Positions 7,956 to 58,171 of a stretch of DNA of 64,000 nt are shown in pieces. Origin of the DNA: Raillietiella orientalis (lineage: Eukaryota); contig JAYWIR010000012.1 of assembly GCA_036172245.1 (NCBI GenBank), positions 806,001 through 870,000 on the forward strand, read 5' to 3'. The notes under the pieces are model-generated. The model saw nothing but the letters and a program-made list of their open reading frames with translations, was not told the DNA's origin and ran no database searches. Numbering within the stretch: position 1 is the stretch's first letter; the number at the start of each line of letters is the position of its first letter. The position numbers were made by a program, and so were the translations under genes.

Positions 7956-7958
7956 AGG

Positions 7959-28407: not shown

Positions 28408-30767
28408 CTAGACCCGAACCGAGCGGTACCCACGGAACCGGGCTGACCTGGCCTGGAAATCCCCGGTGGGTGTGGTGGTATCGGCTTCGAGGGACTTCGT
28501 GCATTCCTTCTCTTCCTCCTCCCCGTCTTCCTCGTCACTGACCAGAACCTTGTCCACAACGAAGAGATTGCCCAGGTTGTACACATACAGGTCGCTGAGC
28601 AGCACAGTAGCTCCGTTCACGGTGATGGCTCCTGAGCAGGCGAAAGGAGAACATTCGGGTTCAGAAATAAGCAAATTCGGGTTTCTTCCCTTTCCTTCCC
28701 TTCTCCCTCTTTGCTGTTGCTGGACTGCAGGGAGCCCCCCGTGACAAGGAGCACCCGAAATGGTAAAGGGGACGCTCGCGGGGTCAAGTGAGTTTCGTCC
28801 GCAAGGTCAGGAAGGCGAGAGGGGGCAATCCCTCTCCCTTTTCCTCAGCCGGAGGAAAAGAAATGGTTGCGGACGCTGCTCTCCTACGCTCCCCGCACTC
28901 ATTCCGAACTCTCGGAATGGGTGCGGCCCGGACGTCGCATTCCAAGAGAGCGGACGGAAATACAGAAAGAGAGGGACTTGCCATTCTTCGTTGTGACCCG
29001 GATGGGTTTGCCTCCGAGAGACTTCAGAGCTGTGGAAGCTTCCCCGGAAGCGCCAGTAAAGTTCGAGGAGTACCAGTATCCCGGGAGGGTGTGGTCCAGG
29101 AGCAGCTGGCAAACCTTGTCGTAGTAGGACTGGTCCATACGGATGTCGATCCAGGGCAACTCCCGTAACGCCGAGTCGATGGGTGCGAAGATGGTGTACT
29201 TGTAGTACTTGCCTGCAGGGGAAGAAGAGGAACAGGGGAGCGTGGCTCCGCTCGCCAGCGCGCAGGGGCGGCGCACCTGACTTGTAGTAACGAAAGCGCG
29301 GCGCTGCCCCGTGCGCGTTCTGGATAAACCATCGGAAGCGTGTCAAGTCCTCCAGCTCCCACAGCTTGTAGAAGAGATTGCTCAGAAACGCGGAATGGAT
29401 GTGGGGGTATATGAGTAGAGGAGCCGTCTCCTTGTCCCCATGGCTCTTCCTGAGCTCTTCGAAGACATCCACGTCCAGGAAGAGGACCTGGTCGATGAAG
29501 AACGCGTTCCCTCCGGACAGATACGCCTCTTTGTTGACGATGACATCCGCCCCGTTGATGGTGTAGCAGCCTGGTAGCTTCCGGAACACTGCAGGAAGAC
29601 ACGGGGTAGGCTAGCGTGCTTCCTCAGCTCCTCTTTTCTCTCCTGGGTTCTCACTTTTCGTCACGTGGCAGTCGCCACGCGGGCCGATCTGCAGCTTTTC
29701 CCCTCCTAGAGTCTCCCTGGTGATGTTCCTCTCGGTGAAGTCCTCGAAGGACATGCGCCCGAGGACGAAGTGGTTCAGGATGACCTTGTCCCGGAACTCA
29801 TCCACCGAGAACGGGTTAAACCCATAGTCAATTGGGCTCCAGCTCCTGAAGGCCGCGTTACTGGGGACGAAGACCGTGTACTCCCTTCCTGGAAGAAGAG
29901 GCGGAGCATTCCAGAGGCGCTGGATCAACGCGCTACCACGGTTACCCCTCCCCCTTCCCGCCGCTTTCCTTCCCGGAAGCGCTTGTTCTTTCCTACCCAT
30001 TCGGGACCACCTTCTCTGGACTGTGTGGAGACGGGGCCACCCTCCAGCACGCGGTCTCCCGGCAGCCTGCGAAGCGGCCACGAATCCATTCTTGGCTAGC
30101 AGAAGGGACCGTCTGTTCCGACCGCCTCCCTTCCCACCTTGCAAGAAGGGGATTCAAGGTTTTTCGACCGTAAACTGTCGTTTGCGTCGGGAATGCACCC
30201 ATAGGCTCAACATCGGGAACCACAGGCGAACCGGAGAGTATCCTGAGGGAAGGATGAAACTGGGAAGGCCGAGGGAAAGGAAACGACATCGTCTTGTCCC
30301 TTCCGACGACGACGCGCGCATTCTAAGCGTCGTCAGGTGGACCGGGAGGACCGCCTCATAGAATCGCGTCTCTTTGACTCCTTTATCAACCCTTCCCAGA
30401 GCATCGCCCTCTCCTCCCTCCCGCCCATCACCACCACCAGGATTCGCTCGATGTTGCGGAAGTCTACGAGGCACTCACCGGAGAGGAAGTGGCGGTGGAT
30501 GCTGCTGGCCAGGCCGAGCTGCCTGATGAACTCATTGTAGAAGGCGTGCTTCCGCAATTGGACAATCAGGGACGCAGCGAAGTTCCCCTCGAGCTCCGCT
30601 GCTCCTTCGGAACCCGCGTGGACGGTGGTCTCCTCCTCCGAGCTCGCTGCGGCGGCGCGCGCCCCGACGCCAAAACGCAGCACGCAGATGCAGCAGCACA
30701 CGAATAGCGCGGCCCCTGCCGCGCTGCAGCAACCCCTGCACCGACCCACAGCGGACGATCGCGCCAT
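28408..30767 (-). CDS. Secreted fasciclin (FAS1)-domain protein, two FAS1 repeats; exons 30767-30479, 29888-29655, 29588-29277, 29212-28982, 28631-28408 (3' end uncertain)
   Basis: Hydrophobic signal-like N-terminus. FAS1 H1 motifs YTVFVPSNAAF and YTIFAPIDSAL; H2 motifs GNAFFIDQVL and GNLFVVDKVL; INGA/VNGA. All four junctions are phase 1 and keep the frame. Confidence 0.88.
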
Positions 30768-35444: not shown

Positions 35445-36432
35445 GGGCCTCATTCACCCATCTTGCCCTCGTGCTGCCCTCCCTCATAGAAGCCAGGAAC
35501 AGCCAAGAGGAGGCTCGTTACGAAGTGTCCTGCCTCATCGGAGGCAGGAAAAAAACAGTGAAGGCGTGGACGCCCCGGGAACTAGCGGACCCTACAGCCC
35601 CGAGAGTCCCGTCAAATGGAATCGTGCGCTGGGGCGAGCTGCTCGACATGCCTCCGGAGGAGTTGAAGTGGCCCTGGGCGTATTGAGACAGTGGCACTTA
35701 CCCTTTGGGTTGGCAGGAGACGGCGCTGCTTGTGCTCCATTGGGGACTTTGGAGCAGAGCACGCCTGTCTCACTGGACATTGGGGAGACTGGATGCCCAT
35801 TGTACAGAGTGTGGAGAGAGGGAGACCTTCCCCTACTTACTCATCGAATGTGTTGCCCTCAGCCGAACGTGGGATCGACTCTCGTCGGCCATAAACGTAG
35901 CGGTGGGCGACCCTAAAGACAGTTTTCATCGCCTCTTGAAGCGAAACTCCCTACCAGGTGCTGAGTGTGTAGCAGTTCTCTGCTGCATACGAGGAATACT
36001 GGACAAGTGGAACGCGTCGATAAGAGGCAACAGCAGTCGGAATGCCATCCACTGGGCAGTCATCTCCATGGAGAAGGCTAGCCATTGGCGCCGGCTGAGG
36101 AAAATCCTGCCGGCACTTGTTAGCATTTGGAACCAGATGCTGAGGCCTCCGCTCGGCGAGCAGTAATCCCTTCCTTCCCCTCCTCCTCCCTATAAACATT
36201 GTACCCCAGGCGTTTTTTTTTGTTTTTTTGTGTATTCTTTTTTTTTTCTTTTTCCCGTCCCATTCACGAGTGCAGTAGGCCTTACCGGCACTCAAGTCGG
36301 TAAACAAGTGCAAAACAATACGGAAATGTGTTCCGACAGGAACACAAAAACAATGAAAATCAATCGACTGCAATTATAAATTGTAATTTTGTTTTTTTGA
36401 ATAATAAAAGCCCCGGCTTACCCGGTTGAAAA
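35445..36432 (+). mobile_element. 5'-truncated Tx1-like element (ORF2 C-terminus plus 3' UTR)
   Basis: RWGELL..LKWP, WQETALLVLHWGL, CTECGERETFPYLLIEC. Ends AATAAAAG-CC-CCGG-CTTAC-CCGG-TTGAAAA. Direct paralogue of 39625-40591. Confidence 0.9.
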
Positions 36433-37650
36433 CACACGTCGTCCACTCTCAACGTTCGGAACGGATGGGTATTTGGTATCAGCCCGGGTCTTTGACATCG
36501 CCCGCTTCTTCTTCAAAAGCCAAGAAAATTCCTGAGTTGGTGGAATGGGACAATAAATAAATAAATAAAAAGGTGGGAGAAGACAGGATCTTTGGCCTCG
36601 ACCGTTCCTTTCTTCTACAACCGGCGTTGGATGTCGGTGATCTTTGTTCGTACCTGTGTAACCAGGTGAGGCTACCTAGCAACCGTCCTCGTGTAGGTGA
36701 CTGCCTTGCTGGTGACCCCCATTCGCTGCGCTTGCGTCTGAAAGACATGGCCGCGGCAATGACGCAAATGATCACTGCACCTGCTGAGAGTTCGCAGCGC
36801 GAGAAGAATCGCTGTAACAGGTCTCGTATGCGGTGTTCAGCTGGCACAAGAGCTCTGAATCCACCACGGTTCCTGGAGGCGCACCGCATTCCACAAGAAG
36901 ACATGGGGTGGATTCCACCGACCCGCAACTGGGACGGTTCGGCTAAAGAACTCCCCCTGAAACAAGCTTCAGGGACTGGTTGCACTGGACATCCCAGTAA
37001 GGGAACAGCAGCAGCCTGTTTCCTACTTATTGGGAACACTGAAGTGTTTAGGCACAAGAGAGGGACCACTTGGTCATGGGGGAGGGGGGACACCCCTAAT
37101 AGTTCGGACCACCCACGTACTCCCATTGCTTGGGAGCGAGAAGTGGCGGCGTCCACCAGCCCACTCGTTGTCTAGTCGCCCAGTAGTTGGGTCGCTCCTG
37201 CAATGGTTCAGAACTCCCGCCCCAGAACTCCTGCAATGGTCCTGAGGGTGAGCCACTGTCGTCGCTCACCCTCAGGACGGACAGTTCTGCGGCAAGGACT
37301 GTAGCGTCGAGCTCTGCATCACTTCATCCGAGAGATGTCTCAGGAAGTGACGCAGACAACGGAGTTCCTCTGGTTGCATTCCTTAGTTTGCAGTCCAGGA
37401 CACAACCAGCTCCTGTTGCCGGGCATTCACTGAGCGGCAGGAGATCCATGGCTGGGCTTCCATAAGCGAGGCGCGTTGCCTCAGCGGTATGCTGATACCC
37501 GCATCCTGTAGCGGTAGCAACGGTTCCTTCGCTGCAGGCTCAGCGCTGGAGGATGAGGCGCAAAGGCTCACACCACGGGAAGTCCACAGCTCGTCACAGA
37601 GTACAAAACTGCGTCTGCTGCTTTTCTAGTCTTGCGTTTGTCTCGTGTCT
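36433..37650 (-). mobile_element. Decayed Tx1-like ORF2 C-terminal fragment plus partial 3' UTR
   Basis: LWTSPWC, WISC, GVRGWSELLGV, LNTSVFPISRKQ are homologous to 450-1060. The 3' UTR is cut by the 3' end of the neighbouring element. Confidence 0.8.
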
Positions 37651-39439: not shown

Positions 39440-40591
39440 CTTGGCTGTCCTGGTGAGAGGAAATACCTGGATCTCCTGCCTCCTTGCGAACTGTATTACC
39501 TGGCTGCAGGAGTCCGTTTCCGCGTGAGCAAAAATCAACGGCGCCTGCGAGGTGGACTTCTCCTGCCTTCTTCGAGGCAACGCTGGCCAGCTCCTGCGGG
39601 AGATTGTATCCAACCCACAAAAGCTTTTGTGGGCCTCATTAACCCCCCTTGCCCTCGTGCTACCCTTCCTCAGAGAAGCCAGGGACAGCCAAGAGGAGGC
39701 ATCGTATGAAGTGTCCTGCCTCATCGGGGCGAGGAAAAAACTAATGAAGGCGTGGACGTCCCGGGAACTAGCGGACTCTACAACCCCGAGCGTCCCGTCA
39801 AATGGAATCGTGCGCTGCGGCGAGCTGCTCGACATGCCTCCGGAGGAGCTGAAGTGGCCCCCGGCGTATTAAGACAGTGGCACCCTCCCTTGGATTGGCA
39901 TTAGACGGCGCTGCTTGTACTCCATTGGGGACTTTCAAGCAGAGCACGCCTGTCTCACTGGACATTTGGGAGATTGGATGCCCATTGTACAGAGTTTGGG
40001 GAGAGGGAGACCTTCCTCCACTTACTCATCGAATGTGTTGCCCTCCGCCAAACGTGGGATCGTCTCTCGTCGGCCGTAAACGTTCCAATGGGCGACCCTA
40101 AAAATCTTTTTCGTCGCCTCCTGATGCGGAACTCCCTGCCAGGCGCCGCGTGTGTGGCAGTTCTCTGCTGCATACGGAGAATATAGGGCAAGTGGAACGC
40201 GTCAATAAGAATCCGCAGCAGTCGGAATGCCATCCACTAGGCAGTTATCTCCATGGAGAAGGCTTCCCACTGGCGCCGGCTGAGGAAAATCCTGCCAGCA
40301 TGTTCGCATACAGAACCACATGCAGAGGCCTCCCCATGGCTTCCGTGATCCCTTCCCCATAAACATTGTCCCCGAAGCATGTTTTCTTTTTTATGTGTTT
40401 TTTCTCTTTTTTCCGTCCCCTTCGCTAGTGGAGAAGTCCTTACCGGCATACAAGTCGGAAACGACAAGTGCATAAGACAATAAGAACAATGCGTTCTGAC
40501 TGGAACATAACTACATCATACAAGACTTTATTATTAAATTTATAATTATAAAATTTTAATAATAAAAGCCCCGACTTACTCGGATGAAAAA
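39440..40591 (+). mobile_element. 5'-truncated Tx1-like element (ORF2 C-terminus plus 3' UTR)
   Basis: GNTWISCL..WLQESVSA..YEVSCLIGARKK..GELLDMPPEELKWPP..HLLIEC. Ends AATAAAAG-CC-CCGA-CTTAC-TCGG-ATGAAAAA. Confidence 0.9.
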
Positions 40592-40619
40592 CTGCAGGGA
40601 ATTGATGATGTTATTCTTA

Positions 40620-41060: not shown

Positions 41061-41179
41061 CGCAGTTCATGGCCGCAGCTGGATGGACTTGGAATTCTTC
41101 AGAAGAGAATATCCCATTCGAGATTTCTGATCGAATGTACAAGAACGCTCATCGACTCAGTCCTTTTGCCTTGCCCACG

Positions 41180-43860
41180 CCGCATCAGCTTCGATGAGCC
41201 TTTCACGACCGGTAAAATTCTCGCCGGTATCAAAAGGCTCAAGAGGCGGAAAGCTCCAGGGGAAGACGGCTTGCCCGCGGAGTTCTATCAGAGCTTCGCG
41301 GAAGAGCTGGCCCCCCTGGTGCTCGAGTTGACAAGGCGAATCCGAGACGAAGGCGATGTTCCCGCCTCGTTTCGGTCAGCCAGGGTGAGGCTCCTCCCGA
41401 AGGGAGGAGACCTCAGGAAACTTAGCAACTGGAGTCCGATCACGATTGTGAACACGGACGCCAAGTTGATCGCCGGGCTGTGGGCGTCGCGATTGGGGCA
41501 GGTGTCCAATTCCATAATTAGCCCGGAGCAGACTTACGCTGTTCCCGGGCGAAGTATGGAGGAAGAGGTACGAAGAAGGCTCGCGAAGAAGAGGTTGCTC
41601 TTTTTCGCGAGCACATGGATGCACGCGCAGCGGAGTAGGAAAGAAGGGAACGGGAAAATTTGCAACCCTACTTTGGGGCCGACAGTGGGACAGGGTAGAG
41701 ACTCCCATGCGGGAAAGGGGGCCTTAGCGATCGCAGTCGATCTTCATAAGGCATTCGACTGTGTTGACCAGGAACTCCTCTTGGAGCTCCTGGGTCGCAT
41801 GGGCTTCCCACCCTCCTTGATTACCTACCTGCGCTCTTGCTGGCGGAACGCAATAATCTCGATTACTTTTAGTGGTCAAAAGGTGTATGGCGTGTCGGTG
41901 CGGCGGGGCATAAGGCAGGGCGACAGCCTCAGCCCCCTGCTCTTTAGTACCTACTTTGAGTTGGTGCTGAGAACGTACAGGGTGACTTTGGCCCCCTTGC
42001 CGAGCTCGTGCCCCGGCACGCCAGCCGTAGCGGCGTATGCCGACGATCTTCTGCTCCTCTTACCTATGTCCACCCCGGCGAAGGCGGTCGGAGATTTCTT
42101 CGACCTTCTTAGCCGTGGGGCCGGATTACAGGTTAACAGGGCGGAGTCGTCGGTGGTGCCAGTTGGAGCGTTGTGGGCAGGGCAGCAGGACTGGGTCCGT
42201 CTGGGGATCCCCACGGTGAGGTGCATCAAGTACCTTGGTGTGCCGTTGGGGGACTTCTCCCCTGCGGAAGCGTGGTACAGCTTCCTCCAAAAAGTCTAGA
42301 CGGCGATCGGCCCGTTCCTGGTAGGCAAGTTTCACTTGCCAGAAAGGGCCGCGGTTTGGAACGCCTCCGCGGCCCCCATCCTCCGTTCCTTGCTTTTTGT
42401 TTGCCCCGCCCCCGTGGAATCTAAAAAGCGGACGAAGGACCTCCTCCGCATAGCCCTTTGGGGCAAGGGGAGGACCCGAGTCCCTTTGAAGGACTTGTGC
42501 GCTCCGCGTCGGGACGGCGGTCTCGGCCTCCTGACGCTGGAGCGCGTGGAAATCCAGCTGCAATGGCGAACCCTCGCCATCGCAGCGAAGATGTGGAGCA
42601 CCGCTTGGTGCATTCCGGCCCGCCTCCTGGCCAGACGTGTGTCCCGATGCGAAGGACTCGCGTCGTTTCTTCTGTGCCCTGGCCGGAAGATTCGAAGATG
42701 CGGTCTACTGCTCGGGCGCATGGCAACCCTGGCGAAGGAGAACGGCTGGATGGTTTGTGGCCCCGCCAACTCCTCCGCTTGGCTGGAGGAGACTGCTGGC
42801 ACCTGGGCCAAGCAGAACCAAAGGTGCGAAGACCCGATGAACTGCCTGCAAGTCGGCTTCTACGCCCGCCGAACTCTGCGTGAAATTCTTGAATTTCCAC
42901 CGAGTTGCACGTGGGCGAAAGGGACACCCCTTGCTACGGCGATGCCCTTCCTCCAAAGGGCGCTTCACGAAATCCGGAAGTCGAGGTGGCAAGTCTGCTG
43001 CCGTATCGCAGGCAGAGAGAAGATAATGAGCGGCTGGACCATGGGAGAGCTGATAGATGCTACGACCCCTAGTCTCCAGCCGCGTGGATCAAGAAGATGG
43101 GGCGAGCTGCTCGGCATTCGATTGGATGACCTGAAGTGGCCCCCGGTCCTACTTGGATCCAGGATTCTTCCCCTAAAGTGGCAAGAATCGGCGCTTCTGT
43201 GGCTGCATTGGGGTCTACCCTGCAACGCGCGCCGCTTCCACTGGACGCGGGGAAGAGTAAATCCTGCGTGTGCCAGGTGTGGGGAGCGGGAGTTGCTCCC
43301 CCACCTCTTAGTTGATTGCCCTGCCTTCTGGATTCTTTGGGATCGTCTTAAAACGGCCCTTGGGATACCGGATGGTGGCAACCCCAGAGGCGTGTACAGT
43401 CTTGTCTTCCTGCGGGACGCCCTCAGTCCAGCCGCAGCCCTGGCAGCACTTTGCTGCATTCGTGGTACCGTGGCGGCCTGGAGTGATGCCGAAGATGAAG
43501 ATTGCATCGTGAGGGACGTCATCGAGTATGCTGTTCGCTTCCTGCAGAGAGCTACCCGATGGCCCCATCTGGGAAGAATGAAAATGGAACTCGAAGGCAT
43601 CCTGCAAAGGATGGGCCCTCCCAGCAGTTGTCTGTGATCCCTTCCCGGCCCTCCAAACTCCTTTTGTTGTTTTTTCTCTTATTTTATTTTATTTTTGTTT
43701 TCTCCCCCATCCCCTTTTACTGCCGAGGAGAGCACACCGGGCTGCGTCCCGGTGTCCCGGCAGGTCCGGTATTGCGTGGCCGTCAGTGGGGCCTTGTACC
43801 ACGTTCTGTAATGACTGAAGGAATGTTTTTTTAATAAACGTCCCGGCGTACCAGGGTGGC
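41180..43860 (+). mobile_element. 5'-truncated Tx1-like element with nearly open RT-to-C-terminus frame (one premature TAG at 42297)
   Basis: KAPGEDGLP, WSPITIVNTDAK, DLHKAFD, RQGDSLSPLLF, AYADD, KYLGVP, RRDGGLGL, CARCGERELLPHLLVDC. Stop at 43637, then 3' UTR motifs. Confidence 0.96.
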
Positions 43861-43862
43861 AT

Positions 43863-44190
43863 CGCCGCACCAACTGACATCACGGACGACTTCGCCCTGT
43901 TTACCGTAAGCCCGGTTTATCGACTGAGCAGGTCGAAGAACTCCTCGACCGCCGAAGCCGGAGGGGACATAGGGAGCAGCGGCAGACGGTCGTCAGCGTA
44001 TGCTGACGCCGCAGGCGTACCGGGACAATGGCACGGCAGGTTCGCAAGATTTTCCCCTTAGGCTCTCAGTACCAACTCGAAGTAGGTACTGAAGAGCAAG
44101 GGACTCAAGCTGTCTCCCTGCCGTATGCCGGGTCGCACGTGCACGGTACCCCGTGCACGGTATGTCCACTGAAAGAGATCTGGATTAGCA
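43863..44190 (-). mobile_element. Tx1-like RT core fragment (decayed)
   Basis: Minus strand gives ISFSGHTVHGVP..GIRQGDSLSPLLFSTYFELVLRA..SAYADD. Confidence 0.85.
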
Positions 44191-44978: not shown

Positions 44979-45002
44979 AATAAAAGATTGCAGCGTTGTC
45001 GT

Positions 45003-47232
45003 TTATTACCAGGCTGCTCCGGGAAGTTTATTGTTAAAAACATCTGGGAACGCAGTTCCCAGGCTAAGGGAGCAGAAGTTAAGGGGGAGGGCTTCAAGAC
45101 ACGCAGGCGGGGCACACTGAGAGCTCAAAACGGGAGGGAGGGGACAATAAATAAATAAATATGGTGGGAGGGTGGGGATATGGGTTTGCAGTTCAGCCGT
45201 TCCTATTCTCAGAACCGGCGGTGAATGCCGGCAATGTCCGTCCTCACTTCTGCGTCAAGGTGTGGCCACCCGACAGCCAGTGCAGATTGCAGGCTGCAGT
45301 GTCGGGGACCGATGTTAGGACCGCTCGCATCTGCAATACGTGGCGAGCCCTGACAGTGGCGCGGACGCAGCAGATGATTGCGACGACCGCTCCCAGAGAT
45401 AGACTGCCACGCGTGAAGAGGCGGTGCATCCAGTCCATTGCGGTGTGTCCGGGATGCAGGAGCGCTAAAGACAGCCGCCGCCACCACAGTTCCTGGAGGG
45501 CACCGCATTCAAATAGCAGATGCGGAAGCTATTCCACCGCTTCGCATTTTGCACAGTTCGGGGACGCGACTTCCCCGTGAACCAGGTGCGCGCGCTGGTT
45601 GGAATACAAACCCCAATGCACCAGCAGAAAAGCATCCCGTTTCCACCGAAGGGGAAACACAGTCACGTCCAAGCACGGGCAAGGGACCACAAGCTCTTCG
45701 GGAGGCACCCAGAGGAGCTCGCTTCACCGGAGAAGTCCCTTGGCAAAAATTCGAGGCGTGGCAGCGTCTGCCAGCTCGCAGGTCCTCCAGCCGCCCAGTA
45801 GTCAAGTCTCGCCTGCGATAGAGCAAGCGACCTCCCACCTCGCCGGTAGGTCACTGTCGTCTCGCACCATCAGGGCAGACAGTGCTTCGGCGAGGGGCGT
45901 AGCGCAAAGGCGTGTCCACTTATCCTGATCTTGCAACATTTCCCCCACTGGACAGTATGGGGAAAGGTCACGCAACGGAGTTCCAATCGGGACACATCCT
46001 GTTGCGATGCCCAGGAAAATAAGGCTTCCTGCCTCCAAGAGTTAAGGTTCGTCGGCCGGCAGAAGATCCAAGAACGCGTTCCCAGAAGCCAGGCGAGCTG
46101 CCACAGAGGGAAGACGAAGCCTCCCATGGCGCGCTCCGTACGCAGGTGCAACGAACGCAGTCCGTCGCCACCCGCGCCGCACCGAAGCAGCAGCCGCACT
46201 GGAGCACACCAGGGAGTCGTCCACAGCTGGGCGCAAAGTGCCAGCATGCGGAACTGCACTAGCAGTCCGATCCGCTCCAGCGTCAGGATGCGCAAGCCGG
46301 CATTCCGCCGTGGAGCAGCCAAGTCCTTGAGGCGGATTTTGGACCTCGCCGGTTCCCACAAGGCGTTCCGCAATAGGCACTTCGCTCGAAGCTTGGCCGA
46401 GTAGGGAGGAAGACAAACAATATAGAAGGGACGGAGGAGAAAGGCAACGAAAATGTTCCACACGAGGGCACGTTCCGCAAGGAGGAACGGGCCGCCTTGA
46501 AACGGGCCCCCAACAGTCTCTGCATTGTGAAGGCAGTGCGACCAGGCTTCTGCTGGACAGAAGGCACCTAATGGAACGCCAAGGTATTTAAAGCACCTGC
46601 CCGTGGGGATCCCCAGGCGGATCCAGTCGGACTGTCCCTCCCACGTAGAGCCAACCGGTATAACGGTTGATTTGCTTCTCTTGACGCTCAGGCCCGCTCC
46701 CCGACGAATGAGCTCAAAGAAATCTTCGAGCCTGGACGCCAAGCTGGACATGAGCAGCAACAGAAGTCGTCAGCATAGGCGGCCACGGCCAGTGTTCCCG
46801 GGCAGGAGATCGGCAGGCTGGCCAACATTAGCCTAAACGCCCTCAGCATCAACTCAAAGAAGATGCTGAAGAGCAACGGGCTTAAACTGTCGACCTGCCT
46901 GATGCACCTGCGCACGGGAATATTGTACACCTGGCAGCCGCTAAAGGAAATGCAAGTTTGCGCGTGGCGCTTTCATGCGCGCAGGTATTCGTTATGACAT
47001 TCGCGTCCATGGACCGCCCCGGAACAGCATACATCTGCTCCGGACTTACCAAGGACTCCGCGATTCTACCCAGCCTCGCGATCCATAGCTTCGAGAACAA
47101 ATTGACGTCCCAATTCACCAAGGTGATCGGACGCCAGTTGCTCAGGTGGCGCAAATCCCCGCCTTTCGGCAGGAGCCGCACCTTTGCTGAGCGGAAGGAA
47201 GCGAAAACGTCTCCCGTCTTCCAAATCTCCAA
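45003..47232 (-). mobile_element. 5'-truncated Tx1-like element, RT to 3' end (deletion near 46955)
   Basis: LLPKGGD..WRPITLVN, RQVDSLSPLLF, AYADD, FKYLGVPLG. Ends AATAAAC-TT-CCCGG-AGCAG-CCTGG. Confidence 0.92.
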
Positions 47233-47264: not shown

Positions 47265-49253
47265 AGAATGTTTTTTTCAGAGGACAGCACGTATTAGGCG
47301 TGCCGGTGAGGCGCGGCAACCGGCAGGGCGACAGCCTGAGTCCCCTGCTCTTTAGCACCTATTTCGAATGGGTGCTGAGAGCATACAGGGTGACATTGGC
47401 TGCCCTGCCAAGCTCGTGCCCCGGTACGCCGGCCGTGTCGGCGTATGCTGACGATCTTCTGTCCCTGCTGCCCAAGTCCGCCCCGGCTTCGGCAAACGAG
47501 GATTTCTTCGACTTGCTAGGCCGCGGGACAGGACTACGGGTGAACAGGACGAAGTCGTCGCTGGTTGCGGTTGGTGCAACGCGGGCAGAAAGAGCTGATT
47601 GGATCCGCTGGGGATCCCCACGGAGAGGTATTCGAAGTACCTCGATGTTCCGTTCGGGGACTTCTGCCACTCAGAAGCCTAGTCAGGTCGTCTCCAGAAA
47701 GTGGAGTCGGCGATCGGCCCGTTCCTGGAAGGCAAGCTTCACTTGCCGGAACGGGCCGCGGTGTCCAACGCGTTCGCGGCCCCCCTCCTTCGCCCACTGC
47801 TTTTTGTTTGCCCCGTACCCCGTGAATTGAAAAAAAGAACAAAGGAACTCCTACGCATCGCCCTGTGGGGCGGCGGGAGGCCTCGTGTGCCTTTAAAGGA
47901 TTTGTGCGCTCCACGTCGGGACGGAGGTCTTAGCGTCCTGACGATGGAGCGAATGGAAACACAGCTGCGGTGGTGTACTCTAGCCATCGCGGCGAAGATG
48001 CGAAACACCCCTTGGTGCGTTTCAGCCCAACTTCTCGCCAGACGTGTGTCTGGGACTGAAGGACTCGCGTCTTTTGTTCTGTGCCTCGTCCGGAAAATAA
48101 GAAGATGCGGACTTCTCCTGGGACGCATGGCCACCCTGGCATAGCAGAACGGGTGGATGGCCTGCAGCCCCGCCAACTTCAGCGCATGGCTGGAAGAAAC
48201 AGTTGGAACGTGGGCAAAGTTAAAAGACATCAGTGGAGAATCCTGCAACCGCCTGCGCACCGGCATCTACACCCGCTGCACGCTACGGAACATGATCGTG
48301 TGTCCCGCCAGAAGCACTTGGGCGGAGACGACCCCACTGGCCACAGCGCTGCCCTTCCTACGAAGGGCGTTTCAAAACTGACGGAAGCCAAGATGGCAAG
48401 TCACCTGCCGGATAGCAGGCAGGGAGAAGCTGATGAGCGGCTGGACCGTGAGGGAACTGGCTGACGCGAAGACCCCACGCGTTCTCCCGCGCGGTATACG
48501 GAGATGGGACGAGCTGCTTGGCATCCCGCTGGATGACCCGAAGTGGCCCCCTTTATTTAGAGACGCATCCACCCTCCCCCTCAAGTGGCAGGAAGCGGCG
48601 CTGTTGTTGTTGCACTGGAGTCTTCCCTGCAACGCGCGCCGCCACCACTGGACGTTGGGAAACGTGGGACAGAACTGTGCAGTGTGCGGGGAGGAGGAAT
48701 CCCTCTCCCACCCGTTAGTGGACTGCGCTGTCCTCCGGCCCTTGTGGGAACGTTTTGCTACGACCCTCCGGATACCGATCGGCAGTACCCCCAGAGACAT
48801 TGTGAGACTCCTCTTCGTGCGAGACGCCCTGCCACCAACCTCAACCCTGGCAGTGCTCTGCTGCCTCCGAGGGATTGTGGCCGCGTGGAGTTCAGCCAAC
48901 AAAGGAAGCAGCGACAGGGACCCCATCGTACACGCGGGTCGCTACCTGCGAATCGCAATCGGCTCGTCCCATCTGGGACCTATGACGAGGGACCTCGAGG
49001 GCATCCTGGAAAGGATGGTCTCTTCCTCCAGCGGGCTGTGATCCCTTCCCGGCCCCCCAAATAGTTTCTTTTTGTTTATTTCTTTTGTTTTTCTTTTCGT
49101 TTTTACCCCCTACCTATTCCGCTGCCGAGGAGAGTCAAGCCGGCCTGCGAGCCGGCTTCCTGGCAGGTCCAAAGAACTATTGGCCGTAGCGGGGCCTCGT
49201 ACCGCGAAAACATAGTGTTTAGCAATAAACGCCCCGGCGTGACCGGGTGAAAA
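47265..49253 (+). mobile_element. 5'-truncated Tx1-like element, RT core to 3' end
   Basis: RQGDSLSPLLFSTYF, AYADD, RRDGGL, CAVCGEEESLSHPLVDC. Stop at 49041. Ends AATAAAC-GC-CCCGG-CGTGA-CCGGG-TGAAAA. Confidence 0.94.
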
Positions 49254-49254
49254 C

Positions 49255-51945
49255 TTCCCCGTGTCGTTCTAGGGAGCGGACGTGGTTTGGCATCGCTCCA
49301 CGGACTGGTTAGTGGGAAGCTTTTCGTTGGTTGTCTGGTGTGTGGGAGCACCGGTGTCCCATGGCAGAAATGCCTGAGGACACCGCGATGGAAGTTGGAG
49401 GAGGAGAAGCGACACGTTCTCCTCCACCAATGAAATTGGGGCATCCGCCCCCACGGAATCCGGGGCACTTGCCCCATCGGAATCGGGGGCAACCGCCTCT
49501 TCGCGTCCCTCCTTGCCATTGGCGAGGAGTTGGAGTGACGTCGTTGCTGCACCATCCCCGGATGCAGTAGCGGAGCAGACTGCCTACAAGGACAGCGGCT
49601 ACAAGCCGTCTCTGATCTATAAGGTAGGCAGTGTGTTTGATGAAAAAATTGCACGCTCCTTCGAAATGGAGCTCCAAAGGTTGAACGTGAGGGAGGAAGA
49701 CCTTTTAGGCCTATCCGTCCTTAGTGGGGGCCAGCGAGTTGAGCTGACATGCAAAGAGGCAAGTATGGCGCAGCGACTGCTGAACACCCCCATCACGGTG
49801 GACGGCCGCAGGATCTTCCCTGTGACGGAGGACCGCTCCGTCGTGGTCCACCTCACAGGTGTATCACTCCGAATGGACAAAACCAGCGTCCATGAGGAGT
49901 TGTCGAAGCATAGTAGTGTGCACGCGTATTGGGCCAAACCCAATGTCTTCCGAACGTACGGAAGGCTATTCAGTGGGATGGCCGCAGCCCGCGTCACCCT
50001 ACCAGAGAATGGTGGGCTCCCCCACAAACTGAATATCCGCGAAGAAAAAGTCGATGTTTGGTACGTGGGTAAGCCCAAGTATTGTGGCCATTGCGATGCT
50101 ACAGGGCATTTAAAAAAGCGGTGCCCTAACATCCAACGCCACTTATGTGAAAATAAGGGCCACATCCGTAAGGTGTGCCCAAGAAGAGAAATCCCGTCTC
50201 CATCCGCTGCCAAAAAGGCAAAGATAAAACGCACGGGAGAGACACATACACAGAAACAGGCTGTAAACACCCAGATGCCAGTCCCTAAGCCCTCACAGCA
50301 AACGTCGGTTGAGAACACTCCTGACGACGCTGGTGACGGCGAAGGCTGGCAGACGGTACAGCCACGAAGAAAACCCGGGAGTCCCGAACGAAACGCGGTA
50401 AAAACAAAAACGGAGCGCGAAAAACCGTGCCGCGAAAAGCTCCGCGCGTGTTCGGTAAAATTAGAACGTGTTGAGGCACTCGATGCCGCCTCCGGGGGAG
50501 CGATCTCCCCCCTCGCGTCCGCCGAAGCCGCGACGGTCGATGGTGAACCCTCTAGCGAAACAGAGGGGGAACCGCGCGCCGCGCTCGACGCGATCGAGGA
50601 GGCCGCCTTCCAGCAGGCGGTGGAAGAACTCACGGCTGAACTGCAAGGCCGTGAAAAGAACTCGCGAAAAGCCTTGCGAAGACCGGCCGCGAGGAAGATT
50701 CCGAAGGCAGGTGAGGCCGATCCGGACGTCGAAAGTGCGTCCTCTTCAGCGGAGGCGCAACCAAAGAAGACGGGACGTAAGTCTCAGAATCCCAGGAGGC
50801 GCATCCGGAACAATAAGGAGGAGGATGAATCGGCCCCCGAGGGGGAAGCCGGCAGCGTGGGAGGCGAGGGTGGGAATATCTCATTCCCCGACACCGCGCA
50901 GCTAGCGACCCCCATGGAGGAGGATGTGCAGGTGGTTGAACCCCTACTTCCTTTGCAAGGCCCCGACGACGAATCGTCCTCCATGGAGGAAGGTTCCTCC
51001 ATGGAGGACGATTCGTCGTCCTCCTAGCGTCCCGCCCGACAAGGTGGCGGGAGCCCCATTGCCAATTTCCCAGGATTAACACCTGGACTCGCCTGTCGCC
51101 GTAGGATACGCGTAGCCTGCTGGAACGTCAACGGGCTGCGCGATGACGGCAACAGGCTGGACACCGCCGACACCCTGCGTGACTTCGACCTGGCACTCCT
51201 GCAGGAGATCCACGTGATCACCGCGGAGAACGCCCAGGAGATCGAAAGGATCGCAGGGGGTCGTCTGTTTTGGCAATGCGGCGCTCGCAACACCTGTGGC
51301 GTCGCGTTTTTTATGAAGCCAGCAGTCGCTTCCTTCGTCAAGGACGTACGATTCGACAAGGACAGTCGGGTTGGCCAGCTTATCCTTAGGTGGTCCGACT
51401 CGATCGACCTTGTCGTGACTAATGTGTACGCTCCGAGCGGAGGACGCGGGTACGGGGAACGTTCCCGGTTACTCGAAACCCTGAAGCGCGACTGGCTGGC
51501 GCAAGGCACATCTGATCGGTGGGGATTTCAACATCCGCCTGCTCTCAGGTGTGCCTTGCAGGCAAAAATACGCAACCAACGTGTTGTGCGCCGCTATGCG
51601 TACGCGCAACTTGCTGGGGGACCTACCGGAAATGGCCCAAAGCGTAGACCACGTCTTCCTTGACGCCGACCTGTGCCCACGGGTCGGCAGACGAGGGAAA
51701 CTTCCGTCGACGCTATCGGACCACTTCCGGTTGATAATCGAGATTATGCCACGCGACAAAGGACCACCATCCAGGGCGTGGCGTATGCCAGGGGACTAAA
51801 CGCGCATCTCAGGTGCTGCGGAACATCTCTGCCAAGTACTGGGAGGCGTCATCCTCCGAAACCTCCAAGACTGGGACCGCATGAAGGCCTCGGTCCGCGT
51901 GTTCTGCAAGGAGTTCCCTGTGCACCGCCTGCCCCGGGGATTTGG
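49255..51945 (+). mobile_element. 5' half of a Tx1-like element: 5' UTR, ORF1 and APE endonuclease
   Basis: ORF1 followed by RVACWNVNGL..LLQEIH..NVYAP..GGF(N)..VDHVFL..LSDHF. Cut by the 3' end of the element at 51948-54202. Confidence 0.94.
49361..51027 (+). pseudogene. Retrotransposon ORF1 (gag-like nucleic-acid-binding protein), one frameshift near 49510
   Basis: ATG at 49361 and a 504-aa open frame at 49513-51027. Knuckles CGHCDATGHLKKRC and (R)HLCENKGHIRKVC, then a long charged low-complexity tail. Confidence 0.88.
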
Positions 51946-51947
51946 TG

Positions 51948-54202
51948 TTGCCACCCAGGTACGCCCAGGGCGTTTATTGGAACTCTACAAAAACTTGGTA
52001 CGAGGCCCCACTAACGGCCGCACAACACCGGACCTGCCGGGACGCCGGGACGCAGCCCGGCGTGACGCTCCTCGGCAGTGGAGGGGAGTTTGGGAGAAAA
52101 CAAAAAAAAAAATAAAATAAAGAAAAACAAAAGGAGTTTGGAGGGAGGGGAAGGGATCACTATGCACTAGGAGGAGGGCCCATCCTTCGCAGGATGCCCT
52201 CTAGGTCCTTCTGCGTTTGTCCCAGATGGGGCCATCTCGCAGCTCTTCGCATGAAGCTCACAGCATACGGGATGACTTCCCTCTCGTTGGCATCCACTCC
52301 TTCGTCGCAAATGTCTCTCCAGGCCGCCACGATGCCCCGGATGCAGCAGAGGGCTGCGAGGGCTGCGGGGGGATGCAGGGCGTCCCGCACGAAGAGTGGC
52401 CGAAGAACGTCTCTGGGCGCGCTGCCCATTGGGAGCCCGAGGGTCGTCCCGAACCGTTCCCACAGGGGTCGGATGGCAGCACAGTCAACTAGAAGGTAGG
52501 GGAGCGATTCCCGCTCCCCACACCTGGCACACTCAGGGCTTACACTTCCTCGCGTCCAGTGGAAGCGGCTCGCGTTGCAGGGTAAACCCCAGTGCAACAG
52601 CAGCAGTGCCGACTCTTGCCACTTTAGCGGGAGAAGCCTGGATCCGATTAATACTGGGGGCCACTTCAGGTCATCCGTCGGTATGCCGAGCAGCTCGCCC
52701 CATCTAACAAGTCCACGCGGGAGGGCACTCGGGGTCGTGGCATCTGCCAGTTCACCCATGGTCCAACCGCTCATTTTCTTTTCCCTGCCTGCGATCCGGC
52801 AGGAGACGTGCCACTTCGGCGTCCGGCCGCTGGTTAGAGCCCTTCGTAGGAAGGGCAGCGTCGAAGCCAAAGGGGTCGTCTCTGCTTACGTGCTCCTGGC
52901 GGGACACTCCAGAGTGGTCCGTAGGGTGCAGCAGGCGTTGGAGCCGAGTCGCAGGCGGTTCCATTCACGTCCAGTCTGGAGGTTCAGCTTGGCCCACGTC
53001 CCAACGGATTCCTCCAGCCAAGCGGAGGAGTTGGCGGGGCTGCATACCGTCCAGCCGTTCTCTCTCACCAGGGATTCCATGCGCCCAAGGAGAAGGCCGC
53101 ATCTCCTGACCTTCCGACCGGGGCACAGAAGGAAAGACGCGAGTCCTTGCGTCCTCGATACACGGCTGGCGAGGATGTGGGCCGGGACGCACCAGGGGGT
53201 GTTCCACGTCTTTGCTGCGATGGCTAGGGTGCGCCATCGCAGCTGTATGTCCATGCGCTCCAACGTCAGGAGGCCAAGACCACCGTCCCGACGCGGAGCG
53301 CATATGTCCTTAAGAGGTGCATGAGGCCTCCCGCTGCCCCAGAGGGCGATGCGGAGAAGGTCTTTAGTCCTCTTCTTCAGGTCACGGGGGACGGGGCACA
53401 CAGAGAGCAGGGGGCGGAGGATGGGAGCCGCGAACGCGTTCCACACCGCGGCCGGTTCCGGCAGAAGGAACTTGCCTTCCAGGAACGGGCCGATTGCCAA
53501 CTCTACCTTTTGGAGACGACCTGACCAGGTTTCTGCGAGGCAGAAGTCCCCCAACGGGACACCCAAGTACTTCAGGTACCTGGCCGTGAGGATCCCCAAG
53601 AGGATCCAGTCAGGCCGTCCAACCTACGTCGCACCCACCGCTACCACCGATGACTTCGCCTTGTTTACCTGGAGTCCAGTCCCACGGCTTAGCAGATCGA
53701 AGAAATCCTCGACTGCGGCTGCCGGGGCCGCCATGAGCAACATTAGCAGAAGATCGTCGGCGTATGCAGCTACAGCGGGCGTGCCTGGGCACGAGCTAGG
53801 CAAGGCAGCCAAAGTCACCCTGTATGCTCTCAGCACCAACTCAAAGTAGGTGCTGAAGAGCAGGGGACTGAGGCTATCGCCCTGCCGTATGCCCCGCCGC
53901 ACCGGCACGCCGTACGTTGTTTGTCCGCTGAAGGAGACGTTGATTAGCGCATTCCGCCAGCAAGAGCGCAGGTAGGAGAGAAGAGAGGGTGGGAAGCCCA
54001 TGAGACCCAAAAGCTCCAACAGTAGCTCCTGGTCCACGCAGTCGAACGCCTTGTGGAGATCGACTGCGATCGCTAGGGCCCCCTTCCCTGCCTTAGTGTT
54101 CGTTCCCAGCCCAGCTGGCGGTCTTAAAGTGGGGTTGCCAATCCTTGTCGCTGTTTCATGGTGACATTTTTGCATATGGAACCATGTGCTCGCGAAGAAT
54201 AG
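51948..54202 (-). mobile_element. 5'-truncated Tx1-like element, RT to 3' end
   Basis: DLHKAFD, RQGDSLSPLLF, AYADD, KYLGVP, CARCGERESLPYLLVDC. Close paralogue of 41600-43860 in inverted orientation. Confidence 0.95.
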
Positions 54203-54845
54203 GTTGGCCTGGACGTTTGGGGGATTGGATGTCAATTGTGCAGAGTGCGGGGAAAGAGAAACCTTCCCCCACTTAATCATCGAGTGTGTCACACTCTGTC
54301 AGATGTGGGATCGACTGTCGTCGATCCTGAATATTCCGGGGGCGACCCCGACAACATTTTTAGGCGCCTCCTGATGCGGGACGCCATGCCAGCCTCCGGG
54401 TTTGTGGAAGTGCTGTGTTGCATACGCGATATCCTGGACAAGTGGACCGCGCCAATGAGAGGCCGCACCAGTCGGAATGCCATTCACTGGGCAGTCATCT
54501 CCTTGGAGAAGGCTTGCCTAAGAAACATTTGCCGGCACTTGTTCGCATCGGAAACTGGATGCAGATGCCTCCTCACAGCGTACCGTGATCCCCTTCCTTT
54601 CCACTCCTCCCAAAAAACATGCCCCCTCCAGGCGTTTTCCTTTTTTTTTCTTTTGTTTTTGTTTTTCCTGCCCCTGCGCCAGTGTGGAGGACCTTATCGA
54701 CCTGCGGGTCGGTAAGGTCAAGTGCCCCAAGACAAAATTTTTGTGCTGACCAAAAAAAAAAACATTGTTAACAAAAACTCTTTATGAAATTCTTTCTATG
54801 TAAAAAATTCTAATAATTAAAGCCCCAGCTCACCCAAGCGAAAAA
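54203..54845 (+). mobile_element. Short 3' fragment of a Tx1-like element
   Basis: CAECGERETFPHLIIEC..RNAIHWAVISLEKA, related to 35775-36432. Has the 3' UTR hairpin and an ATTAAA motif. Confidence 0.88.
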
Positions 54846-54846
54846 C

Positions 54847-57800
54847 CTGGTTGCCTATTTGCGCGCATGTTGGCGCCACGCGCTCATCTCCATCTATTTC
54901 AGCGTCTGCCACGTGTACGGCGTGCCGGTGCGGCGAGGCTTCATACATAGCGACAGATTAAGGCCATTGCTCTACTGCATATTCTTTGAGTTGATGCTAG
55001 AGGCTTTTATTGCGACATTTTGGGTTACATTTTTGTCCTATATAAAGGTCAGTTTTTACTACAAATTTGCGAAGCACAATTTTACAGGGGTTTGAAGTGT
55101 CTTTGAGTACACAGTTGTTGAGAGGGAACATTTTAATTAGTCTTTTGTATCTGAATCTCATTTAGAGAAACGTCAGTACCTGCATAGCTCTTACTATACA
55201 AGATGTAGTGGAGCCGTTGAAAAAGTTGTCATCGGCTCGTGCATCTTAGAGAGGTGGCTTTTATGGTCGAAGCTGGATGCACAGGACGATCACGGATATT
55301 TAAGCTTTTTCAGGGAACGTGGAAGCTCCACATTTCGAATTGAGTGGGTACATTTATGAGAGTCGGGGGAATAGTGGAACCGTTTTGCAGTAAAATCACA
55401 TTGGTCACAAAAGCAAGTGGGAGTTAAAGCATGCATACGTGTCATATGGTGCTTCAGGTGACGGGAACTATTGTGCCTTTCTTCGGCTGAGGAAGCGAAT
55501 TTACAGTCAGGAATAGGGCATGGGCAAGGACATGCAAGCGAAATGCTAACGTATGAACCACGGTCGGCGTCTAAAAAAGCGGGTTCCAAAATTGGTTTTT
55601 GAACTTCCATGGTTTCATTAAGTGGTGCTCTCATGTTACCAGAGTAACGGGGAACTTTCCACAAACAAGCGCTAACGTAGGTACGTGAGTGCATGTGAGC
55701 ACTGCGTTGGGGATACAGGCGCAACTCCAGCTCTGTTGCGCGCGGTAAGAGTTTGGCTTATGCGCGCCACGCGGTCGCGTCGCCATCTTTAAAAATCAGT
55801 GTTGCAAATAAAAAGCAAAAATTCACTAATCGATCAAAACTTTCGGTTAACACAATATTCCAGAAAGCACAGAAAGTGCTAGTTGTTGCTTGTATTGAGA
55901 ATTGAAGCTCGAAACTAAGAGTGGAGATCTTGCGATGCTATGCGACGTCCTATTGTGAATCCATTCACGCGTTGTACTGATGATTTTGCTTCCGACACAT
56001 TACGAAAAGGAAAACAAAAACATTTTGGAAGAGATTGAATAGTTCTTCCAAAATATTAAGGTCAAAAGCAACATGGGAATAAGTCTTACCTTGGCCAACC
56101 AAGAGCTTTCTAGTTGGACCATAGCGGCTGCGGACGGCCAAAGGAGCGCTCTTTTGTTTACCACAATAATCTCTGTATCATCATGATTCCTTGTGAACAA
56201 GTAAAATACCTAAGTAAAATACACTGAATACAATATAAATACGTAAATGCTTGAAGAAAATTTCATGAAATTTACAATTAAACTGTCACCTACGGTAACG
56301 ACACCGAGACACGTCCGCACGTACAGGCTGACGCTGGCCAACTTGCCGAGTTCTTGGCCGAGAACTCCGGCCGTGGCCGCCTATGCTGACGACTTCTCCT
56401 GTTGCCCGTGTCCACCTCGGCGTCCAGTCTCGAAGACTTCTTCGAGCTGGTTCGCCGTGGAGCGGGCATGAGCGTAAACCGGAGCAACAGCGTGGTCGTT
56501 TCAGTTGGTGCGGGGTGGGAGGGGCAGTCCGACTGGATCCGTCTGGGGATCCGGACCGCTACGTCTTTGCAGTACTTGGGCGTCCCGCTGGGGGACATCA
56601 GCCCAGTGGAGCGTGATCGGACTGCCTTCGGAAGTTCACGAATGCTTTAAACCCGTTCCACCAAGGCAGGTTCCTGCAGCCAAAGCGGGCCACAGCGCGG
56701 AACACCTTCGTTGGCCCCCCTTACGCTCCCTGCTTTTTGTTTGCGCGCCCTCCTACGCCGCCAAGCTCCAGACGCAAAGCCTGTTCAGAAACGTTCTGTG
56801 GAGACCCACGAGGTCGACGATCCTCCTCAAAGACTTGGCGGCTCCGCGTCAGGATGCCGGCTTGGGCATCCTGACGCTCTAGAGAATCGAGCTGCAGGCG
56901 CAGTTACGAATGTTGGCCCTGTGCGCCAAACTCTGGTCCACTCCGTGTTGTGCAGCCGCGCGCCTGCTATTGCGGCGCTGCACCGGAAGCGAAGGACTTC
57001 TGTTGCTCCGGCCAAATACGGAGCGCTCCACGAGAAACTTCGGTTTCCGCTGGAAACCGCTTTGCCTGCTCCTGGTAGCCCACGCATGGAACCCCTGCCT
57101 TCCAACGAACTTTAGCGCCTCTCAGCAGAATTCGTTGCAGATCTGGGCAAAGCAACAGGATGTTACGCTCTTGGAACTCCGTTGAGCCAACCTCTCCCCG
57201 TACTGTACGATGGATGAAGTCCCGAACATCCAGGAGGAGTGGACTCGCCTGGCAATCACGCCCCTCCTCGACGCGCTGTCAGCCCTCAGCACAAGTGATC
57301 ACGGCTGTTTACCAGCGAGGTGGGAGGTCGCATGCAGCATTGCAGGAGCAACCCGACCCTTGGGCGGCTGGAGGTCTTGCGAGCTGGCAGACGCCGCCAC
57401 GCCTCCCAACATCCCGAAGGGTTTCCTTCGGTGGAGTGAACTTTTGAGTGTGCCCCCGAAGAACTTGTGGCCCCTCCCTCCTGCTTGAACACTTCTGTGT
57501 TCCCTTTGAGCTGGAAACAGTACGTCATTATGCTGGTGCATTGTGCTTTTCACTCCAACCAGCAGACGAACCGTGTTTCCTGGAGAGTTGTCTCCCCGAA
57601 CTGTAAACGGTGTGGGGAAGTGGAAACGCTCCCGCAACTGCTGTTGGACTGAGTTGTTCTGCAAGGACTGTGGCGGAGGCTAACCTCATCTCTGCAGCAC
57701 CAGAGGGACACCGCAAGAGACTTGGTGGCCGCTTCTTCACGCTAGGCGGACTGTCGTTAGGTGCTGTCATCGCCACGGTCTGTTGCACTCGAGCCATCGA

Positions 57801-58171
57801 CAACGTCCACCGACCGCTGAAGAAGCAGGCGATTCGTCGACAGACCTCCGGAATAGCTTGCGAGAACATGACGTAGGCTTCCGAGTGTGTCCATCTTCCA
57901 GAAGACGTTAGGAGCGAGATCACCGGCTTCCATAGCCGGTTGTGAAGGAAAGGAAAGGTCAAACTAGATACCCGTGTCCCCTCCTCTCTCCATATTTTGA
58001 TTTCTATTTTTTATATGTGTATTTGTGGTCCCCTCCCTCCCGTTCCGGACTATCGGTTTATCGAACTGCATGTTGGGGATCCGCCCCCTTCGTGTTTTCT
58101 GTATCCTTTGTCCGGGAACTCTGTTGCTGGATAGTTTAGCAATAAACACCCCGTCTCATCCGGGTGAGAAA
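54847..58171 (+). mobile_element. Tx1-like element RT core to 3' end, apparently interrupted by ~1.3 kb (about 55005-56315)
   Basis: GVPVRRG..PLLYCIFFELML breaks at ~55003 and RTYRLTL..AAYADD resumes at ~56316. 56480-58171 duplicates 1-1692. Confidence 0.85.
55200..55634 (-). pseudogene. Zinc-finger ORF remnant, possibly the N-terminus of an RLE-type (R2/NeSL-like) non-LTR element
   Basis: CPIPDC..HLKHHMTRMH, CDQC..HKC and YP*SSCASSF..HLSKMH give three finger-like motifs, with a stop at 55290-55292. Confidence 0.45.

Follow-up and report, generated by a model that had tools for sequence, protein, structure and literature searches.

A CUGCG-loop hairpin with compensatory stem changes and a conserved terminal box in the 3' untranslated regions of L1-like LINEs

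LINE copies of the window

A stretch of 64,000 nucleotides (nt) from Raillietiella orientalis (contig JAYWIR010000012.1, positions 806,001 to 870,000; hereafter the window, whose numbering is used throughout) was analyzed for a hairpin with a CUGCG loop (CTGCG in the DNA) located in the 3' untranslated regions (3' UTRs) of its long interspersed nuclear elements (LINEs). The window is repeat-rich eukaryotic DNA of 37-62% GC. LINE 3' ends were located by a motif scan together with a self-BLAST of the 64 kb; 12 ends were obtained, 11 of them distinct, which are called here copies A to I, with F2, F3, and a duplicate of I (I2). The pair I and I2 lies within a segmental duplication (1-2438 vs. 56480-58916, 93.3% identity) that includes one LINE 3' end. 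The CTGCG loop appeared in 7 of the 12 ends (7 of the 11 distinct ones), being invariant in copies A to E (5/5) and present in F and G.

The reverse transcriptase (RT) domain RVT_1 was recognized in 2 of the 13 long open reading frames (ORFs) of the window, with a Cys-rich region C-terminal to it that displayed an invariant C..C in the C-terminal alignment. Copy E (59895-63025, minus strand) is the longest element and comprises an ORF1 with a CCHC zinc knuckle (zf-CCHC, 62231-63025), an APE endonuclease (Exo_endo_phos, 61252-62255), the RT with its C-terminal region and then the 3' UTR. In copy A, ORF2 (41061-43637, plus strand) contains one in-frame TAG (42297-42299) and includes RVT_1 and the Cys-rich region C-terminal to it. 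Traits of the L1 superfamily were thus present (APE upstream of RVT_1, Cys-rich C terminus, and the nucleic-acid-binding zinc knuckle of ORF1), and the architecture of the elements is L1-like.

Identity of ORF2 to that of copy A was 72% in B, 65% in C, 62% in D, and about 40-53% in E; values of about 40% were obtained for the F group, 40-48% over most of the length for G, 32-45% for H, and about 35-40% for I. The closest protein outside the window was an unnamed one with 67% identity, the next best reaching at most 29%, and the named matches were plant, fish, frog, and fungal RTs, all at 29% identity or less. No relative was found in two metagenome scans performed with ORF2 alignments, nor in a scan of viral contigs. 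The 3' UTRs of copies A to E could be aligned over their whole length (82% identity for A/B, 86% for C/D, 75% for A/C, and 67% for A/E), and those of F2 and F3 were 70 and 65% identical to that of F, respectively. In 8 of 11 copies (A to E, F with one extra C, F2, and F3) the stop codon of ORF2 was found inside the motif T(G/A)ATCCC(C)YTCC, at 43635-43645 in copy A, and a pyrimidine-rich tract (at least 32 of 40 nt) followed the ORF2 stop in all UTRs.

Base pairing in the 3' UTR of copies A to E

The seven CTGCG hairpins listed in a preliminary description of this DNA were all found, together with the further features claimed for them: one mismatch in copy D (a C.A), an outer CTGCCG..YGGCAG helix in four copies (A, B, C, and D), a distance of 64-97 nt to the downstream hexamer in six copies (A to F), and a closer position in the seventh (G). 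Counted from the last base of the hairpin to the first base of the hexamer, the distances were 78 nt in A, 64 in B, 66 in C, 65 in D, 80 in E, 96 in F (97 to ATTAAA), and 12 in G. Two covariance models were trained on copies A to E, one of a 53-nt domain (R1) and the other of the 22-nt hairpin (R2). In copies A to E the inner hairpin tops the outer helix, resulting in a two-helix domain of 45 nt. This domain occupies 43720-43763 (plus strand) in A, with the inner hairpin at 43734-43755, loop CTGCGT, and an outer helix CTGCCG.AGG/CCCGGCAG (74.8 bits with R1); 52034-52078 (minus strand) in B, with the inner hairpin at 52063-52042 and loop CTGCGT (77.1 bits); 49122-49166 (plus strand) in C, with the inner hairpin at 49137-49158, loop CTGCGA, and a G.U in the outer helix (78.1 bits); 5453-5497 (minus strand) in D, with the inner hairpin at 5482-5461 and loop CTGCGA (75.0 bits); and 59996-60040 (minus strand) in E, with the inner hairpin at 60023-60006, loop CTGCGA, and a degraded outer helix, CTGTCG..CTGGAG (63.8 bits). 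The hairpin of copy F (54690-54719, plus strand; loop CTGCGG) has a 12-bp stem with one U.G wobble that the preliminary description had overlooked and a folding z of -3.08, and the one of copy G (45044-45062, minus strand; folding z -2.53) consists of 7 bp with a 5-nt loop, CTGCG, and is placed unlike those of A to F.

Hairpins of this kind were overrepresented in the window. The core hairpin pattern, with up to two mismatches allowed, gave 11 matches vs. a mean of 2.45 in shuffled sequences, and none of 100 shuffles reached 11. Among the 1,024 possible 5-mers, CTGCG ranked first as the beginning of 5-6-nt loops with five or more perfect closing pairs (6 cases vs. a mean of 0.49; the next-best 5-mer had 4); this strict filter leaves out copies D (mismatch) and F (wobble), and copies A to E are homologous and so do not represent five independent occurrences. 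Five of these six hairpins were located in LINE 3' UTRs and the sixth (24385-24402) had no LINE context; this one and two further candidates, at 23889 and 62958, were dropped for this reason.

RNAalifold, run on the alignment of copies A to E, predicted a consensus structure in which five pairs were compensatory: besides the outer helix (CTGCCG.AGG with CCYGGCAG) with the inner hairpin on top, it comprised a terminal helix as well as a second hairpin. For the whole structure, 93.3% of 135 cells were paired, and none of 500 shuffles matched either the pairing or the covariation score; controls in which the structure was slid along the alignment had 33-49% of cells paired. The 8-bp inner helix alone presented 38 of 40 paired cells, with three of its eight pairs changed on both sides (C-G/A-U/U.G; G-C/A-U; G-C/C-G/U-A), and one of 500 shuffles was as good. 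These comparisons are to be read knowing that the structure was derived from the same five homologous sequences of one window, and that related sequences can exceed shuffles without any structure. The second hairpin, GYGG-GGCCTYGTA-CCRC, is located at 43786-43802 in A and at homologous sites in B, C, and D (alignment columns 90-116); between A/B and C/D, one of its pairs had changed from U-A to C-G in a compensatory manner, and its 9-nt loop was kept.

Independent contrasts were obtained by placing the observed number of substitutions at random in the 53-nt domain and scoring the pairs. Between A and B there were five substituted columns, two of which belong to a single pair that changed from A-U to G-C, with every pair preserved (P = 0.009). 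Between C and D, six columns were substituted; a compensatory change turned a C-G pair into U-A, and another pair was broken (P = 0.033). The deeper contrast, A vs. C, gave P = 0.00015 under random substitution. The earlier claim that the stems change in compensating pairs was therefore upheld in A to E by pair counts, shuffles, and random substitution alike.

These data also bear on an explanation without any RNA function, according to which the hairpin would be an inherited GC-rich palindrome around a CCGG core. Its compensatory changes would have arisen at the DNA level (correction of a quasi-palindrome, or a palindromic protein site), and the same 5-mer would have appeared by chance in F and G. 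In line with it, the CCGG core and the loop are invariant in A to E and just three of the eight pairs vary; in addition, the region has 60-80% GC and shuffled sequences fold almost as well (z from -0.2 to -2.1 in A to E). The double changes, in contrast, were improbable under random substitution (P values above), and the outer helix and the second hairpin covary too. Read on the opposite strand, the G.U wobbles of C/D, E, and F would turn into C.A mismatches, which favors the sense strand, that is, the RNA; only the mismatch of D points the other way, so that pairs possible in one strand alone amount to four sense events vs. one antisense event, whereas templated correction would yield perfect Watson-Crick arms. 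Including the points on copies F and G given below, we regard the palindrome explanation as improbable. Judging from these alignments, the inner hairpin of copies A to E is probably an RNA structure under selection for pairing, a reading well supported for a sample of five sequences.

Terminal box, 3' flanks and neighboring features

The strongest conserved feature of all 11 distinct ends was a terminal box that makes up the last 31-32 nt of every element. It starts with AATAAA or a variant (AACAAA in E, AATTAAA in F); after two more bases comes a CCCGG/CCGGG inverted repeat that encloses a loop of 4-7 nt, and the element ends in a sequence of the type ..TGARAAC or GGCAWC. Mean pairwise identity across families was 0.66-0.67 in the box, vs. 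0.22-0.29 in the rest of the UTR and 0.45-0.49 in the coding sequence. On the plus strand, the box was located at 43833-43863 in A (AATAAA, a CCCGG/CCAGGG inverted repeat, and a ..GGCATC end, without poly(A)), 49224-49254 in C (hexamer at 49224, end GTGAAAAC), 54815-54846 in F, where the inverted repeat is degraded, 36403-36433 in F2 (hexamer at 36403), 40561-40592 in F3, 1662-1693 in I, and 58141-58172 in its duplicate I2. On the minus strand, it was found at 51947-51978 in B (hexamer at 51978), 5366-5396 in D (hexamer at 5396), 59895-59926 in E (hexamer at 59926), 45001-45032 in G (hexamer at 45032), and 7958-7988 in H (hexamer at 7988). No match for the terminal-box pattern was found in the genome contigs or viral contigs searched.

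Pairing of the inverted repeat was less clear than its conservation. In the potential helix of the box, 82% of the cells were paired and covariation was not above that of shuffles (102/500); the sole compensatory change was an A-U pair in F3 where F2 has G-C, and the helix was not recovered by RNAalifold from a MAFFT alignment. We treat it here as a box of conserved sequence rather than as an established helix.

The 3' boundary was set by the point at which copies of the same subfamily stop matching. None of the 12 ends had a poly(A) tail after AATAAA, which is the trait of relaxed L1 elements; all of them stopped at a fixed ...C after the box, with unrelated sequence beyond. Box variants followed the subfamily: a CGTA loop with a GGCA(T/A)C end in A/B, CGTGA with GAAAAC in C/D, and AAAAGCCCCG.CTTAC in F2/F3. 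This indicated that the box belongs to the element rather than to a shared insertion target. The opposite arrangement would be that of site-specific Tx1-type LINEs, with the elements ending at AATAAA, the box being part of the target, and the hairpin lying nearer the true 3' end. It has in its favor that the Tx group is described as target-specific (PMC3747384), and the shortness of the box, with unrelated DNA behind it, also agrees with it; nevertheless, the variation of the box with subfamily fits co-evolution with the element, and the sequence past the box was unrelated in all 11 distinct copies. No common target was seen among these flanks, which speaks against a target specificity of the Tx type and weakens the name Tx1-like used in the preliminary description. 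This possibility appears very improbable to us. No convincing target-site duplication was found in the window, and an 11-mer considered for copy C falls within another element.

Other features of the window were a host gene of the DUF4505/UPF0598 family (C8orf82-like; 16781-17260, plus strand), with a single long exon and best matches in animals (52-56% identity), which sits in a low-GC island (37-41% GC over 12-18 kb), and an ORF with a match to the Fasciclin domain (E 1.3e-06; 29611-30153, minus strand) in a stretch of ~60% GC with many overlapping long ORFs on both strands. An open frame of 549 amino acids without Pfam match (49378-51027, plus strand) follows right after the 3' end of copy C and may be the 5' part of another element.

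Proposed role of the hairpin and comparison with known LINE tails

We give about even chances to the proposal that these are stringent-type LINEs whose reverse transcription would start at the terminal box, with the CUGCG domain as a lineage-specific accessory RNA site for a protein of the element. The CUGCG hairpin is the apical part of a two-helix domain of ~45 nt in the 3' UTR of the poly(A)-less lineage formed by copies A to E, and it would be a docking site on the RNA of the element for its own ORF2 or ORF1 protein. It would act jointly with the 31-32-nt terminal box (AAUAAA, CCCGG/CCGGG inverted repeat, ...AAAC) common to every family in the window, at which reverse transcription would start precisely. 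A precise start at the box would explain the absence of A-tails, and the lack of poly(A) tails fits stringent-type rather than poly(A)-based recognition. The preliminary description had proposed a selected cis-acting element for recognition by the ORF2 protein or for 3'-end formation; the pairing kept through compensatory change speaks for selection, while the function is argued by analogy. The recurrence of the loop in copies F and G suggests, as weak evidence, that the CUGCG loop is the part read by a protein.

Several observations weigh against this proposal. The terminal position is occupied by the box, which is more widely conserved than the hairpin, and the hairpin ends 95-127 nt (A to F) or 43 nt (G) from the 3' terminus; in known stringent LINEs the recognized stem-loop is in the terminal tail. 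Selection on pairing would be drawn from only five homologous sequences of one window, short of a phylogenetically corrected proof. The predicted probability of hairpin formation in the full UTR, which speaks for the hairpin in A (0.92), B (0.76), C (0.87), F (0.94), and G (0.99), was low in D (0.46) and E (0.27). Folding-energy z values of 61-nt segments were modest (-0.2 to -3.1), the energies being little better than those of shuffles because the region is GC-rich. In addition, no short element with the box or the domain that could be a partner short interspersed nuclear element (SINE) was found in the 64-kb window, and every copy was 5'-truncated, nested, or broken by stops or frameshifts. 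The analysis as a whole draws on these 12 degraded copies.

To these are added the ends without the loop and the isolation of copies F and G. In F2, F3, H, and I (4 of 11 distinct ends) the terminal box is kept and the CTGCG loop is absent, which indicated that the hairpin is not generally required. The hairpins of F2 (36282-36303, plus strand) and F3 (40440-40461, plus strand; one A.A mismatch) share the stem of F (CCTTAYCGRC with GTCGGWAA) in the same place, with ACTCAA and ATACAA as the respective loops; within one subfamily, the loop had thus been swapped on a conserved stem. Upstream of the box of copy H there was just a weak CCGG..CCGG hairpin, and no comparable hairpin was found in the 3' UTR of copy I. 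Copies F and G could not be aligned with A to E outside the loop. The search of the window with R1 returned just the five training copies (64-78 bits; the next match had 12 bits), meaning that F and G are not homologous to A to E at the level of the domain; with R2, copy F appeared at 15.7 bits (E ~0.4), second among the independent matches, and copy G was missed. The earlier statement of a loop conserved across divergent subfamilies thus held only in part, the loop being constant in A to E, recurring in F and G, and missing from F2, F3, H, and I. A palindrome CCGG-TACG-CCGG (47426-47444, plus strand), found within the RT coding sequence of copy C shortly before its YADD codons, scored 16.2 bits with R2, above F, and is probably a chance match. 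Elsewhere, the pattern of outer helix plus loop was found at 70 loci, all bacterial or archaeal, and these were rejected as chance matches, with at most 22.7 bits in R1 vs. the 64-78 bits of the window copies.

As to the palindrome explanation, the match of copy F was not significant window-wide, and one unrelated hairpin with a CTGCG loop exists at 24385-24402, both of which agree with it. On the other hand, CTGCG occurs at about 0.14% of all starting positions (184 in 128 kb), and two more CTGCG loops among the few hairpins of six other LINE UTRs would be unexpected by chance, according to our own estimate.

Alternatively, a selected RNA hairpin could act through a host factor in forming the 3' end of the mRNA or in its stability or export, the box alone being the start signal for reverse transcription. 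Consistent with such a role, a conserved AATAAA/ATTAAA hexamer and a U-run are located downstream of the hairpin, and the element ends 25-26 nt after the hexamer, which is a normal cleavage distance. The box is conserved in all 11 distinct ends and the loop of the hairpin is not. The same loop on the unrelated stems of F and G would also be easier to understand through a shared host factor or intrinsic stability than through family-specific ORF2 proteins. In copy F the loop may be closed as C(UGCG)G, in agreement with the UNCG tetraloop pattern; in contrast, the loop of A to E cannot form a tetraloop closed by C-G, since its sixth base is A or U. The order of a pyrimidine/T-rich tract followed by AATAAA is furthermore the usual layout of fish, frog, and lizard L1 3' UTRs (PMC5381506). 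Conversely, with a poly(A) signal new copies should carry A-tails, and these were absent from all 12 ends. We consider this host-factor role possible and clearly less likely than the accessory-site proposal. A bolder reading, rather unlikely in our view, is that of a bipartite, poly(A)-independent 3' signal in an L1-type LINE lineage of a poorly sampled eukaryote, whose host gene mentioned above reached at most 56% identity to animal proteins. The box would lie within a working AAUAAA site, and the loop of the upstream hairpin would have been kept, or acquired independently, by three groups that cannot be aligned outside it (A to E, F, and G), since one shared factor would read it. If true, L1 elements with stringent recognition would exist beyond green plants, and several LINE families would have converged on one RNA-protein handle.

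The way in which LINE proteins select the RNA of their own element is understood in detail for just a few elements of the L2 clade, and the textbook answer for the L1 group is the poly(A) tail. Stringent exceptions in the L1 group have been reported in monocots and a green alga, and the poly(A)-less family of the window would be another. An intact copy, should there be one, would offer a tractable means of determining which part of the RNA is read by which protein. The box together with the hairpin also provides a compact signature for annotating the 3' ends of this family.

With respect to previously described RNAs, the Rfam search of the whole window gave no match at the gathering score, and a permissive search of two UTRs gave matches at chance level (E 1.6-4.7). 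A full-text literature search for a CUGCG loop in retrotransposons yielded nothing relevant among the matches listed, as judged by title and abstract. The preliminary description knew of no account of the element; this held for the exact motif, absent from Rfam and from the full-text search, and not for the kind of element, which has been published (PMC3472496). In that work (Ohshima, 2012), the last 45 nt of an L1-clade lineage diverge by 0.144 vs. 0.570 for the whole element, and a 3' hairpin whose stem mutations are compensatory and whose UCU loop is conserved was read as evidence of stringent recognition. The monocot 1a lineage with LINE1-1_ZM, and also the tail of Chlamydomonas L1-1_CR/SINEX-3_CR (PMC3472496), are likened here to the LINEs of the window by their description: both sets are L1-type, with a 3' region conserved well above the rest of the element, compensatory stems, and a loop that stays fixed (in the window, within copies A to E). 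They differ in that the published hairpins lie in the last ~45-50 nt, with a UCU loop, a CGAG flank, partner SINEs, and mostly poly(A) ends, whereas in the window the hairpin ends 95-127 nt from the terminus, with a CUGCG loop, no partner SINE seen, and no poly(A).

Tails of the L2 clade (eel UnaL2, zebrafish ZfL2-1 and ZfL2-2; PMC1636434, PMC4176376) likewise present a stem-loop in the 3' UTR of a poly(A)-less LINE, and the ORF2 protein is reported to bind the 3' stem in general and the loop specifically (Hayashi, 2014, PMC4176376), which is the kind of mechanism proposed above. Those stem-loops, however, belong to another clade, stand directly before terminal short repeats, and are required by assay, whereas the hairpin of the window is known from its sequence. 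In fish, frog, and lizard L1, polypyrimidine and T tracts precede AATAAA and poly(A) (Boissinot and Sookdeo, 2016, PMC5381506); the LINEs of the window share C-rich/T-rich tracts that fill much of the UTR before AATAAA, but they have a conserved stretch of 25-26 nt after the hexamer and no A-tail. For human L1 and Alu, a position-conserved 3' UTR stem-loop was proposed as an RT recognition element (Grechishnikova and Poptsova, 2016, PMC5135761). A 5-7-nt loop and an 8-10-bp stem in an L1 3' UTR are common to both cases; human L1 is of the relaxed, poly(A)-dependent type and the abstract of that study makes no mention of covariation, in contrast with the compensatory changes of the window hairpin. 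The covarying CUGCG hairpin is thus a credible and unsurprising further example of LINE tail hairpins, its exact motif having no counterpart in the Rfam and full-text searches made.

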